A stretch of 64,000 nucleotides of DNA from Bilabrum cf. latius (Eukaryota), in assembly GCA_965178125.1 (NCBI GenBank), contig OZ237743.1, positions 186,001-250,000 of the forward strand. Direction: 5' to 3'. Made by a program: the position numbers and the translations under genes. Positions 15,425 through 64,000 of the stretch are shown here, one piece after another. Below the pieces are notes generated by a model. It saw nothing but the letters and a program-made list of their open reading frames with translations. It did not search any database and was not told the DNA's origin. Every line of letters begins with the position of its first letter. The stretch's first letter is position 1.

Positions 15425-18400
15425 TCACGTCGACGCGCGACTGCTGCCGGCCTCCCTTCGAATCCCCCACTCGTGCCCTCCCTCCCCGCACATGCGCCTC
15501 CACGCCCGGCGAATCGCATCGTCCTGCCCGGCCTCGGCCGACTGAGTCAAAGCCGCGAGCTGCTCTGCAAGCGCAGTCCTCGCCAGCACGATCTCCTCCA
15601 GCCTCGTGGAAGCGATCGTGTGCCTCCAGAGGGACCGCTGCCACGTGTCGCTGGCGGCACGGGCCCCCCGGTCTGCCTCGGCAATGGCCCGCCCCAGCTC
15701 CCTCACCTTTGCTGCTGGGAGTAGCCGTACCGCGTCACGCCCCGCGGCGATGCGCTGTGCGCTCAGGGTGGATCTGCGCGCGCCCAATGATCGGGCCTCG
15801 CCAGCTGCGACATATTCTTGGCCGTCCCTCGTTGCTTCTGCGGGCACTTCCAAAGCATGTTGGGCGCCGGATGCATTACCAGCTGCTTGGATGTCTGTTG
15901 TATCGGAGATAGCTTCCGTACTTGCTGCTTTGATGCTTGCTTCGCTGCCTAGCCGCACGAAATCTGCTCGATCCTACGTACCGCTAGCAGGTGTGGGGTC
16001 GTGCGCACCACCGGAGTCCTCGCCGGTCGATTGAGCCTTTTCTACCAAGTCGAGGCTATGCGACGTTCCTGCTGTATCGATAGACCCATTGGAACCGCCA
16101 GTCATGGCCCCTCGAAGAGTCTCTGATAAGTCCCGCTTGCGGTTCAGCAGCACTCGCAACCGAGTCCCCGCAGCCTGCTCGGCTTCATGTGTCGCCACAA
16201 AGTCCCCCCTCGCCAGCTGCTCCGCGTCTCTCAGTGCGAGCAGCTTCCTTTTGAGGTGCACCGCGTCTGCCTCCAGAGAGCGGTTGATCTCCGTGAGTTG
16301 GGTGCGCAGCGTGGCCAGCTGTCCCAAGGAAGGCTCCACGGTCACACTTGCGGCAGGCGCCTCCTCGTGCCCTATACGACTACTCTCCGCACGGGCCGAG
16401 CCATTGCCAGCCTAACGAGTGTGAGTCTCAGCAGGCTGATCCTCGACGCGGATTGGGCGCCTCGGTGTGCCAATCAGCCGGCCACTTCCCATTCGCGGAA
16501 GCGACGGCTTGCCTGTACCTGTAGATGATGAGCGGGCAGACTTGCTGCTGGAGCTCTGTGCGGCACCGTTGGCTCCCGGGCCTCCTGCGGCCGAGCCAGG
16601 AACGGCTCCATCCCCGGCACGCAATTGCTGCCCAGGGCGGGATCCGATGGCATCCAGCGGTGCGTCGCGGTCCGCGACTCGCGCACTATCTTTGCGAGGG
16701 CTTGCAGGGGTCGCTGCGGGCAGCGATCCTCTCGATGATGATGATGGCGATGGCGGTTCAATGGCGCTCTGCCTAGCTTGATGCGCCACACCCTCCCAGC
16801 TAGACACAGGCGGCAAAATGGGCATCTGTCTGGCGCTCTCGGCATCTCTTGGACCCATCGTTTCGAGGATGCTGCGGCGGTGCGAGGCCGGCTCCAGGAG
16901 CCCTAGCCCTCGGATGCCACCGTCAAACTGCAAGCGGCGTGCCGTGGGATCTGCAGCTGCTGCTGCGCGCTGCGCCGCGGCAGATCTCTCGTCCAGTGGA
17001 GCCGGCTGTGGTGCTTCGGTCCCTTCCGCTGCTAAACCACCTGCCTGTACATTTGCCCCTCTTTGCGATTGCGGGGCACTTCCACCGACGAGCGCACTGA
17101 TGGGCAACAAGAGCCAAGACACCTGACTCACAATGCCGCTGCCGGGGGCCGCACCAGGAGAAACCTCCTCCCCCTAGGCCCGAGCTTCGCCTGATTCTAA
17201 TCCCGACTTCTCATCTGCACCATTGCTAGTGGTCATCGATTCTGCAGCGATACGGTTGCTTCCAGCCCCATCACGAGGCCGATCAGCCCCATTGCCCACG
17301 TCTGCAGTTGTAACCAGACCCCGCTGCTCTATTCCATGCCTTTGGACTTGCTCCTACTCCTAGTCCTAGTCCTAGTCCTAGTCCTGTTCTTTCTCATCTT
17401 CCGATCCAGTACCCTTCGGATCCTGGACGATCTCATCGGTCCCATCCTGCCCTGGTTCATCCGCTAGTACCCCGATCCCTGCCAGTCTGCGCGCAAGCTC
17501 GCCCGCCTCCTGCAGCACGTGGCTCGGAGCGAGCTGCAGCCTCAGTCGCAGCGCAGCCACCGCGTACTCTGCCTCTAACCTTCCCATCTCGCTGCCCTCG
17601 GGGAAGCATGCCTCCAGCTCTGCGTCGATTAGGCCACGCATGCGGTCGGCGTCGAAGATGGGAGACAGCGCGACACCAACTGCAAGCAGCCTGGCTTCCT
17701 CAGGATCTGCTGACCCTGATTCTTCGTCGCTGGTAGAAGCTGCTGCCTTGCCTAAGCTCGGTTTCTGATCCGCAGCACCGGCTGCGATCGGACCGCGCGA
17801 GAGCTGCAGACACGAAGCAACAAAAGCAGCGTCTCGTCCTTCTTCTCCTGAAGCACTCGCAAGCGCCGGCTTCGCCCCAGAAGACCCGTCGTTCTAAGCC
17901 TCCTCGCCCTCTTTGTTTCCCCTTTCGCCGCTGCTGCACACCGCCCGGCACCCCTTGGCCACCAGCCGCCTCCAGTCCCTCATGAACTGGGCCACCTCGA
18001 CCATGCCGGCCTCGGCCAGCGCGGCGCGGCTGGCACGCAGCAGGCCCACGATGGCGGCAAAGAGCGCGGCCCACCCGTGCACCGCCATGCGATGCATCAC
18101 GGCAGCGAAGGCCGGGGGAGGCAGCGAGGCTCCCAGGAGCGGAACCACCCATTGCGCGGCGAGGGACCGCAGGGGCATACCGCTGGCTTCGAGCGCCGCT
18201 GCCACTTCGGGCAGCTAGTCCTGCACGCAACGTTCCAGCATCCAGCACCGTTGCTGCACGCCTGCCAGCGAGTCGTTCCACACGTCGGCGCAGCCCAGCC
18301 CGTCCACCAGCGTGAGCAGGCACAGGACCACCAGCTCCGTGGCTGGACGCCCCGATATTTGCTGCTCTGCGCTCGAGCCGGTCCCGCGAACCTGATGGAG

Positions 18401-18806
18401 CTCGTCCATTCGCAGAGGAGATACGATGGCTTGGCCAGGTAGCCTGCGCGATTTGCGAGCGCTCATTCGCTTCGATTGAGATCCGCCGTCGGCCAGGCGT
18501 ACGAGATCCATCGCACCCCCAGAAACTGTAGGCGGGGTAGTTTGACCCTACACTGCAGCCAACAGCTGTGCCGCTACGAAATTCATGCCTTGGCAGTAGC
18601 CAACGTGCGGTCTGAGGGCATCCAAGGCGACAAGAGCAGCAAACAGCTGCCCATGCCCAGCTGTCCAGATGTATCCATCTGCATGCTTTGTGCCGGGGGT
18701 CGGAGCGACATGCTTGCCCTTGAACATAGGTATTTCTGGTAATGTGCGCCGAACATCGCGCTAAATAACTCCTGCTAGCCCTTCCAGGTAAGCTCCGGAC
18801 TGTATC
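15425..18806 (-). CDS. TBC-domain (Rab-GAP) protein with C-terminal coiled coil; 5' end lost in the assembly gap
   Basis: I*RDVRRTLP (IxxDxxR arginine finger), VGYCQGMNFVAAQLL (glutamine finger) and LPEVAAALEASGMPLRSLAAQWVVPLL lie in one frame with 12 in-frame TAGs (e.g. 18761, 18548, 18215, 17894, 17354-17380, 16412, 15974), ending TGA 15425-15427. Confidence 0.88.
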
Positions 18807-19006
18807 NNNNNNNNNNNNNNNNNNNNNNNNNNNNNNNNNNNNNNNNNNNNNNNNNNNNNNNNNNNNNNNNNNNNNNNNNNNNNNNNNNNNNNNNNNNNNN
18901 NNNNNNNNNNNNNNNNNNNNNNNNNNNNNNNNNNNNNNNNNNNNNNNNNNNNNNNNNNNNNNNNNNNNNNNNNNNNNNNNNNNNNNNNNNNNNNNNNNNN
19001 NNNNNN
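18807..19006. other. Scaffold gap (200 N)
   Basis: Run of N. Confidence 1.
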
Positions 19007-62537: not shown

Positions 62538-62623
62538 CTCTGAATTTCCATGCACTTGCAGACAAACAATGTATCATTTTATCAATTTTTGCATTGTTCT
62601 GCGGCCACTGAATGTGGCTTACA

Positions 62624-64000
62624 TCAAGATCCAACCCCTCGCCCTGTGGAAGCTGCCCTGGCCAGCCGAAGTCGCTTGGATCGCCTCGGGAGCGTTGCAG
62701 GGACCAGCCCACGTCCTGCAGCATCACCGTTCTGGCCGCGAGCCAAAGGTTGGGATTGAAGTTGGCAGTCTGCCTTGCCTTGCGCTCCACCGCGCACCAC
62801 TCCTTGCGTCGCCGGCATGGTGCCTGCTGCATCGTCCAGAGCAGGCGAGCAGGTCCCAAGCACCTCATCAATATGAAGATCCACAGCACGGTCTGCAAAC
62901 AATGCCTCGGGACTACTTGTAGCATCAGTTTCTCTTGCAGGTGGAGACACGGGCCGACTCCGCTTGTGCCCAGCCAATTGCCTGCCTGGTTGCCGGCATG
63001 ACGACCTGGCAGCCACGGCGGACGCATCGATTTTGGATCGAATGTGATTATCCTATGCGCCTTGCTCAGCATTAGATATCGACCCAGTAGGTGCGCTAAT
63101 GCCAAGCCTCTCAGATTCTTGGCTGTGCTGCAGCGGTGCACTGTACCCTGCGCTCTGCTGTGTCGCTGCCCATGTGGATGCGACCGCCTGCAAGGTCTAC
63201 TTGTGCACCGACCGGCTGACCGAAATATGCTGACACACTTGCTCGGTACCAACATCAGGTCGCAGCAATGGTGCTTGCAAGCCCTTGTGCCATGCAGGTG
63301 AGCCTCTGGTGACTGCACCGCTCGGTAATGGAGGAACAGCCGGAGTACGCATGGCACCGGCAATTCCAGACTGCTACTGCTGCTGGGCCTGCAACTGGCG
63401 CTGCTCATGTACTCCCAATGTGTGCGCTACATATTGCGATCTAGGTTGCCCGATCACCTCGCTACGCATGACCAGGCCATAGGACGCAGAGATCGACATG
63501 GAATATCCCGTGTTAGTGGTACGCTTAGCTGGAGTGGAACCGCGTGCAGTGGCAACCACGGCTGCATTGTGCAGGCGTAAGGGTTCGACCTGCACACCGG
63601 AAACTCTAGCAGCTTGCATGCTAGATGCTGGCGCAGACGCGTGCAGATGGTCCTAGGACGAGGCGACGGCAGAATGTGTGGCCAAGTCGACCGAGTTGCT
63701 GCCAACACCATCATCTCTCGACTGAGCTCCAAAGGGCGAATGCGACCGCTGCGGCCGGGTGATTCTCTGCGCTGGGGTGATCCTGTTTCCATCAGTGCCA
63801 CCAGTCCGTTGTCCCCCCCCACCCTCGATGCCGTCTTTGGCCATGGCACCGAACGCCACGAGAGCTTCTCCAGCGTCCACCCGCTGCCTGGCCCTCGCTG
63901 TCTTCTCGTGGGATCGGCGGCGGTGCGACCCCGTGCGCATTCTCGGAACCGTCCTGCCTACGCGACGCAGGTGTTGCAGCACGTTCGGATGCACGTCCAT
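62624..64000 (-). CDS. 3' part of a low-complexity protein of unknown function (starts beyond the window)
   Basis: Track ORFs 63653-64000, 63374-63619 and 62624-63016 lie in one frame joined by TAGs; contains CAG CAG CAG TAG CAG; TGA stop 62624-62626. Confidence 0.7.

Follow-up and report, generated by a model that had tools for sequence, protein, structure and literature searches.

The window analysed here is a 64,000-nucleotide stretch of the GenBank assembly GCA_965178125.1 (Bilabrum cf. latius; contig OZ237743.1, positions 186,001 to 250,000 of the forward strand), whose genes run on through TAG triplets in frame. UAG is a sense codon in these genes. Our analysis covers the 64 kb and 13 genes of the window together with ~22 kb of contigs from relatives; coordinates are those of the window, with the strand in brackets. 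The G+C (GC) content is ~0.62, at least 13 genes lie on the one 64-kb contig, and introns are 84-162 nt long. A single assembly gap of 200 N (18807-19006) falls within a TBC-domain gene, and frames that span it (e.g. 17700-19187) were rejected as artefacts.

Genes of the window

The TBC/RabGAP-domain gene at 15425-18806 (-) (Pfam RabGAP-TBC, 1e-13) has lost its 5′ part in the N gap, holds 12 in-frame TAGs and ends in TGA. The motifs IxxDxxR and YxQ are visible in its translation. A hexamer run within this gene, (GAC TAG) x4 followed by GAG TAG GAG CAG at 17356-17380 (-), is a microsatellite within coding sequence whose unit includes the reassigned codon. Beyond the gap, a frame of 1763 codons at 19381-24672 (+), with no Pfam family, carries six in-frame TAGs and is the only main model with a TAA end. 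The gene at 24811-25788 (+) encodes an HSD17B10-like short-chain dehydrogenase (SDR) in two exons around an intron at 25085-25246; the second exon matches adh_short (1.9e-23), the top solved-structure matches are HSD10 (2e-16), TAG 25003 lies in frame and the gene ends in TGA.

A large membrane or surface protein of an environmental family is encoded at 28211-33598 (+), with a splice joint (28280-28388) near its 5′ end and a TGA end; one of the 14 TAGs in this 1795-codon frame is intronic and 13 are exonic. It is followed at 33800-36010 (+) by a gene with a weakly GNAT-like N-terminus (Acetyltransf_1, E 0.0093, below cut-off), three in-frame TAGs and a TGA end, and at 36178-38637 (-) by a gene for an MRS2-like Mg2+ channel (Pfam MRS2-like, 1.9e-16; solved Mrs2 structures, 1.5e-12) with five TAGs and a TGA end. 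The longest frame, 3885 codons at 38775-50432 (-), contains leucine-rich repeats (Pfam LRR_6) and much low-complexity sequence; it has 33 TAGs and ends in TGA. A 445-codon frame without a family (50365-51702 (+); one TAG, TGA end) precedes an ABC1/ADCK-type atypical kinase gene at 51839-53926 (+) (Pfam ABC1, 1.5e-46; three TAGs, TGA end). The nearest relatives of the ABC1 protein are land plant proteins at 48% identity, which does not place the organism. A PINK1-like protein kinase gene at 54763-56409 (-) (Pkinase, 4.3e-12; top solved structures PINK1, 1.7e-8) has three TAGs and a TGA end. The Kelch-repeat gene at 56442-61253 (-), of 1603 codons with long low-complexity runs, matches Pfam Kelch families, holds six TAGs, one of them (~61167-61169) within the Kelch_6 match, and ends in TGA. 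The last frame, 62624-64000 (-), leaves the window edge and has four TAGs and a TGA end.

Open frames and in-frame stop triplets

The standard code gives the window a longest stop-to-stop frame of 917 codons. Once TAG is taken as sense, frames of 3885, 1795, 1763, 1603 and 1203 codons appear, holding 33, 14, 6, 6 and 12 TAGs respectively, and the first four are open solely under this reading. Reading TAA as sense gains nothing (917 vs 917 codons); reading TGA as sense opens many frames, the longest of 988 codons. As a chance model, 100 second-order Markov simulations of the window were run. The longest real TAG-sense frame, 3885 codons, stands against a simulated mean of 577 and maximum of 983 (n=100), whereas the longest TGA-sense frame lies within the simulated range (maximum 1209). 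Another statistic, the total length of frames of at least 300 codons, was dropped. It is greater for TGA-sense (37,325) than for TAG-sense (28,439) and is uninformative, because TGA is the commonest stop triplet in GC-rich DNA and the 988-codon maximum is one that simulation also reaches.

In 15 open reading frame (ORF) segments from the 13 genes we counted 97 TAG, 0 TAA and 0 TGA among 15,274 in-frame codons; 90 of the 97 TAGs fall in 15425-64000. Per 1000 codons of the same genes, TAG occurs at a rate of 6.35 in frame and 7.14 off frame, TGA at 0 and 15.6, and TAA at 0 and 2.5. The off-frame rates predict 238 TGA and 38 TAA in 15,274 codons, and none of either is seen. TAG is thus under no in-frame counter-selection, and TAA and TGA are excluded. 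If TAA followed TAG in the proportion of CAA to CAG (147:520), ~27 in-frame TAAs would be expected. Since UAA is absent from all 15,274 coding codons it is not a sense codon in use, and the genes depart from National Center for Biotechnology Information (NCBI) table 6, UAR=Gln (glutamine), in which both UAA and UAG stand in frame. Two frames upstream of 15425, 1-2364 (-) with four in-frame TAGs and 8595-9803 (-) with three, show that code use is the same there.

Much of this had been proposed by a first-pass annotation of 15425-64000. Its claim that UAG is sense is borne out by spliced contigs (below), by the in-frame frequency and by frames beyond simulation, and its uncoupling of UAG from UAA by the absence of the ~27 expected TAAs. 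Its estimate of about 100 in-frame TAGs with no internal TAA agrees with our 97 and 0. The kilobase frames that it described as broken only at TAG are those at 38775-50432 (-), 28211-33598 (+) and 19381-24672 (+); the frame 15425-19036 crosses the N gap. The six TAGs that it singled out, at 18761 (-), 25003 (+), 53270 (+), 34157 (+), 61167 (-) and 47241 (-), are all in-frame codons of long frames. That such TAGs lie inside conserved domains stands for the kelch TAG, which falls within the Kelch_6 match, and not for TAG 53270 of the ABC1 gene, which sits in a lineage-specific insert outside the Pfam match. A TAG placed in a GNAT motif loses its footing, the GNAT match being below the Pfam cut-off (16.7 vs 20.7 bits).

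Contigs from other runs

Contigs of four public runs from three studies were aligned to 24600-38700. No run is on record as RNA; RNA status was judged from spliced joints and a poly(T) end. The GT..AG intron 25085-25246 is skipped in contigs of runs X5, X6 and X7, as is 26160-26246 (CT..AC, a minus-strand intron); a second minus-strand intron, 27410-27493 (CT..AC), is skipped in X5 and X6 contigs, and 28280-28388 in X5 contigs. In X5 there is also a loose contig end, 25 nt of poly(T), at 25946. From these skipped introns and the poly(T) end it follows that the runs contain spliced, polyadenylated RNA.

The spliced HSD17B10 contigs of X5, X6 and X7 keep TAG 25003 unchanged on the same contig. 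All 22 in-frame TAGs of 24600-38700 lie under X5 contigs with 0 differences, and one X5 contig of 4101 nt (29404-33504) crosses 13 TAGs with no gap and 0 differences. At the gene 33800-36010, contigs of X5, X6 and X7 begin at 33698-33713, those of X5 and X7 extend to 36022-36041, 0 differences are seen, and the three TAGs are covered in each of the three runs. The first-pass annotation had named TAGs edited or spliced out, and CAG-to-TAG assembly errors, as outcomes that would speak against it; the 22 unchanged TAGs are the reverse of both. UAG is therefore read as sense, given its presence in spliced or transcript-like contigs, its similar frequency in and off frame, and frames far longer than chance provides.

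Near-identical sequence occurs in runs under four different organism labels, and small parts of it in metagenomes labelled protist or algae; X1-X4 are DNA runs that contain the window. The source organism may be an associate of other organisms or a contaminant of their cultures.

Termination of genes

Among the 12 main models in 15.4-64 kb, 11 end in TGA, one (19381-24672) ends in TAA and none needs TAG as its terminator. Two further TGA ends belong to a small minus-strand gene and to the ORF 61196-61780, so that the 13 TGA and one TAA ends reported earlier are close to our recount. None of the 12 ends at TAG, and the HSD17B10-like gene stops at TGA at the C-terminus that it has in common with human HSD10.

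Codon usage of the coding kind persists after the last TAG in 12/12 gene segments tested. The 44 codons past the last ABC1 TAG have a log-likelihood ratio (LLR) of +9.2, where 45-codon windows average +5.7 in frame and -8.8 off frame, and the 40-codon tail after the last TAG of the giant frame 38775-50432 has an LLR of +12.2. In the 40 codons beyond annotated stops this in-frame signal is mostly lost. Neither TGTAA nor AATAAA was seen as a recurring signal downstream of the stops.

Environmental relatives

The 28.2-33.6 kb gene is one of a large environmental family, made up of big cysteine- and proline-rich membrane proteins without a Pfam domain. A protein search with the 1795-amino-acid (aa) protein gave no relatives of near its length and one shorter relative, P0039. 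Metagenome contigs were then scanned with the two proteins, aligned, as query, and 3 of 85 pattern matches encode relatives. These contigs, L001, L002 and L003, have 52-59% identity in the best segment and a GC content of 0.55. The longest frame of L001 grows from 403 codons in the standard code to 1677 with TAG as sense (20 TAGs and a TGA end), and L002 has TAG-sense frames of 841 and 830 codons. All three contigs open only under the TAG-sense reading, and nothing comparable results when TAA or TGA is taken as sense. In the alignment of the window protein with the L contigs, two TAG columns are common to different species, and the window protein and its L001 relative terminate together at TGA. 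The pattern of L001-L003 makes this a trait of a lineage with at least two well-diverged members and not an artefact of a single assembly.

A profile search with alignment A2 over 1.84 billion representatives returned 72 relatives (P0039-P0110), all of them fragments of 65-546 aa. L001 also encodes an SDR. As to the taxon, the protein atlas yielded nothing but bacterial SDR clusters.

Over 28368-33548 the summed depth of X1 contigs is 2-3x that of the flanks, and contigs 90-95% alike are present, which suggests that the 28.2-33.6 kb gene has paralogues or diverged haplotypes. Of 32 variant sites in the diverged copies none touches a TAG and 17 are synonymous, as expected of a coding family.

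The residue encoded by UAG

The comparisons that follow indicate that UAG is most likely decoded as Gln. In a three-way alignment, Gln stands opposite TAG in 9/49 pairs, and in 8/21 where local identity is at least 0.4; BLOSUM62 sums opposite TAG are 36 for Gln, 14 for glutamate (Glu) and 8 for serine (Ser). For column decoding, the 72 fragments were added and each candidate residue was scored over the 26 of 28 TAG columns with at least three aligned residues. Gln scored +5.03, alanine (Ala) +0.41, Ser -11.9, leucine (Leu) -23.1, Glu -33 and tyrosine (Tyr) -40, with the other residues below Ser. As a control the same procedure recovered 20/20 real residue types of the window protein. When seven fragments that come from the reference loci or are near-identical to the window were left out, Gln scored 5.1 and Ala 1.3. 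The most conserved TAG columns show Gln in 10/10, 9/12 and 8/15 fragments.

CAG is the commonest codon opposite TAG (5 of 41, with 2 CAA besides). In three proteins, the HSD17B10-like protein, the TBC domain and the L001 SDR, the top solved-structure match has Gln opposite a TAG. The standard-code fragments of the relatives stop just before a Gln/TAG column in 11/62 cases, vs 9.2% expected (P=0.025). The first form of this C-terminus test (17/69, P=1.3e-4) was dropped as partly circular, since it included the seven fragments from reference loci or near-identical to the window. The assignment made at first pass, UAG=Gln as in NCBI table 15, thus finds moderate support in column decoding, pairwise residues, opposing codons and structure matches.

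Proposed reading and alternatives

At a probability of about 0.85, we propose that UAG has been fully reassigned from stop to sense, most likely Gln, that UGA ends nearly all genes, and that UAA is not sense and ends one gene, the window being nuclear DNA from a eukaryote with high GC, densely spaced genes and few, short introns. A transfer RNA (tRNA) for Gln with anticodon CUA would decode UAG. This anticodon pairs with UAG and not with UAA, and a single mutation separates it from that of tRNA-Gln(CUG) (PMC5304391, PMC11687900). Alongside it, an eRF1 that recognises UAG less well would no longer compete at that codon. We consider tRNA-Gln(CUA) with an altered eRF1 likely, because CUA reads UAG and not UAA and differs from CUG by one mutation; the same mechanism, a tRNA-Gln(CUA) and a change in eRF1, is proposed for Iotanema spirale (PMC5304391).

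Several observations weigh against this proposal. The evidence from this genome is the 64 kb only. Neither the window nor L001-L003 yielded a tRNA gene, the window has no Rfam match, and Pfam scans found no eRF1 among its frames. X5 is flagged as probably DNA, so that only its spliced contigs are firm as RNA. TAA as a terminator rests on the one gene 19381-24672, downstream of which codon usage is ambiguous (LLR +1.6 over 40 codons). As regards the residue, column decoding favours Gln over Ala by only ~4 nats, and the per-column Gln score is 0.19 at TAG columns vs 0.91 at CAG/CAA columns, which places TAGs mostly at variable sites. None of the three ABC1 kinase TAGs falls in a conserved column of the alignment with ABC1 homologues. 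Solved structures are divided: TAG 25003 is opposite Gln in human HSD10 and lysine (Lys) in another entry, TAG 18217 opposite Gln in RABGAP1L and Tyr in RABGAP1, and the TAG of the L001 SDR opposite Gln in the best match and Lys, Lys in the next ones. P0039 has Ser and Tyr at two TAG positions, and single alignments often show Lys, Tyr, Ser, arginine (Arg), Ala, methionine or proline opposite TAG. In a test of neighbour composition isoleucine, Glu and Lys come above Gln, with small differences.

These last points are the ones that would favour a sense codon for some other residue, such as Ala, Ser, Glu, Leu or Tyr: column decoding ranks Ala next after Gln (+0.4 to +1.3), some TAGs have Tyr, Ser, Lys, Arg or Glu opposite them, the neighbour context leans slightly away from Gln, Leu, Ser and Glu have precedents in other lineages, and the (GAC TAG)n GAG TAG GAG CAG run of the TBC gene is equally readable as an acidic run. 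We consider another residue improbable nonetheless: none of Ala, Glu, Leu and Tyr dominates any TAG column, while Gln dominates three, the decoding scores of Ser, Leu, Glu and Tyr run from -11.9 down to -40, Gln has more than twice the BLOSUM sum of Glu, and CAG leads the codons opposite TAG. Slightly less probable still is an ambiguous code, in which UAG would be sense inside genes and a context-dependent stop in some, as in Condylostoma, karyorelicts and Amoebophrya sp. ex K. veneficum. ABC1 homologues do stop ~5 residues before the last ABC1 TAG (53789). Short untranslated regions (UTRs) accompany context-dependent stops in ciliates, and UTRs here are short, the HSD17B10 contig ending 56 nt and the GNAT-like contig 12-31 nt past the stop. 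Yet TAG is needed as a terminator in 0/12 main models, a small sample; the tails past the last TAG look in-frame in 12/12 segments, that of ABC1 among them (LLR +9.2), and the window protein and its L001 relative both end at the same place, at TGA.

That the TAGs are untranslated, as assembly errors, pseudogene lesions, missed introns or edited sites, has a negligible probability. Nothing positive speaks for it beyond the formal point that the analysis started from one contig of the source assembly, which has a 200-N gap. Against it, three studies, with four runs between them, have the same TAGs in their contigs, the spliced contigs keep TAG 25003, the 4101-nt contig passes 13 TAGs with no gaps or changes, TGA and TAA number 0 against 238 and 38 expected, unlike in pseudogenes, and the diverged relatives L001-L003 have the same pattern. 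Neither editing of the RNA nor hidden introns, pseudogenes or assembly errors that turn CAG into TAG can thus account for the TAGs.

Comparison with known codes

UAG-only nuclear cases listed in McGowan et al. 2024 (PMC11687900) are a rhizarian, exLh (Leu), the fornicate Iotanema spirale (Gln), the green alga Scotinosphaera (Ser) and, among ciliates, an oligohymenophorean (UAG=Glu, UAA=Lys), several phyllopharyngeans and Protocruzia tuzeti (these with Gln or Leu). In Iotanema spirale nuclear UAG is Gln and UAA is kept as stop and dominant, according to Panek et al. 2017 (PMC5304391); its eRF1 has a T32G change. The window resembles it in that UAG alone is reassigned, most likely to Gln, that UAA is not sense and that the same mechanism is expected. 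It differs in stop use, TGA ending 11/12 genes here where UAA dominates there, and Iotanema is known from a transcriptome only. The MRS2-, ADCK- and PINK1-like genes of the window would not fit an anaerobic fornicate. A GC content of 0.62, at least 13 genes on a 64-kb contig and introns of 84-162 nt would, as we understand such genomes, be unlike a ciliate macronuclear genome. Protocruzia tuzeti and the phyllopharyngean ciliates are otherwise alike in a UAG-only reassignment to Gln, with several independent origins and UAA kept as stop (PMC11687900).

Amoeboaphelidium protococcarum (Aphelida) reads both TAG and TAA as Gln (PMC6299283) and has a genome GC of 40.5% (PMC10608142, Table 1). Like the organism of the window it is a non-ciliate with a stop-to-Gln change; it is a parasitoid of algae, and some runs with parts of the window are labelled algae or protist metagenome. 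However, TAA is sense there and found in 0/15,274 codons here, GC is 40.5% vs 0.62, and its proteins are not among the ABC1 matches. exLh and Scotinosphaera have UAG uncoupled from UAA in a non-ciliate nuclear genome (PMC11687900), but their residues fit poorly here, decoding giving Leu -23 and Ser -12, far below Gln at +5. In Amoebophrya sp. ex Karlodinium veneficum each of the three stops is found in frame and is read contextually (PMC12005148). It, too, is a protist found with algae that has in-frame stops in expressed nuclear genes, but TAA and TGA are also in frame there, whereas here TAG is so alone and TGA is a clean terminator. On these grounds both this Amoebophrya and Amoeboaphelidium were rejected as the source of the window.

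The pattern here is thus of the Iotanema/NCBI table 15 type and differs in its TGA-dominant stop use. In the literature searched, whose coverage is incomplete, no GC-rich non-ciliate organism with UAG=Gln is reported besides Iotanema. A description may exist or be in preparation, the runs dating from 2024-2025.

What the lineage may be

UAA and UAG nearly always change meaning jointly, and the few UAG-only cases are informative on how a tRNA with a CUA anticodon, together with eRF1, can tell the two codons apart. With its high GC and TGA as main stop, this lineage presents a compositional setting unlike that of the known cases, and bears on whether codon rarity or tRNA mutation is the driver. 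Tentatively, and at somewhat less than even odds, we suggest that the window comes from an undescribed, environmentally widespread lineage, neither ciliate nor fornicate, with an independent and complete change of UAG to Gln, in which UGA has become almost the sole terminator and UAA is nearly unused. The change would be old, given TAG at 6-12 per 1000 codons and homologous TAG sites common to species whose proteins are only ~50% identical. If so, no UAG-only case outside ciliates would have allowed tRNA(CUA) and eRF1 to be read from a genome before this one, for which public genomic and RNA data exist already.

Because standard-code gene callers cut them up, genes of this lineage are largely invisible or mis-annotated in metagenome catalogues: a protein of more than 1700 residues is represented there by the 72 fragments found above. 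Its genes need re-annotation with table 15.

Other features of the window

A short spliced transcript at 25946-27523 (-), recognised by contig joints and poly(T), has introns 26160-26246 and 27410-27493 and its poly(A) end at 25946. In its middle exon a TGA at 27142 closes the frame after just 89 codons, and ~1.1 kb of apparent 3′ UTR, holding an intron, follows that TGA.

Upstream of 15425, an exact 158-nt direct repeat (2462-2619 and 8563-8720) flanks ~6.1 kb of satellites, among them a 39-nt unit x21.7 at 3969-4811 and repeats spaced by 1061 nt at 5094-7359. This block separates the frames 8595-9803 (-) and 1-2364 (-), which may be parts of one gene that an insertion, a duplication or a misassembly has split. 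A C-rich low-complexity block at 10870-15400 has several frames open on both strands and no confident gene; it includes (GCACCA) x126 at 12573-13329 and a 300-nt repeat pair at 11896 and 13307. Over 12-16 kb the AT skew is +0.28 and the GC skew -0.26. Directly past the TBC stop, at ~15330-15424 (-), stand degenerate telomere-like units, GGGTTC AGGGTC AGGGTT AGGGTT. The spacer between the convergent ABC1/ADCK-like and PINK1-like genes is occupied by an array of 126-nt units at 53954-54843 (5 copies of a 259-nt reference, 68-100% identical).

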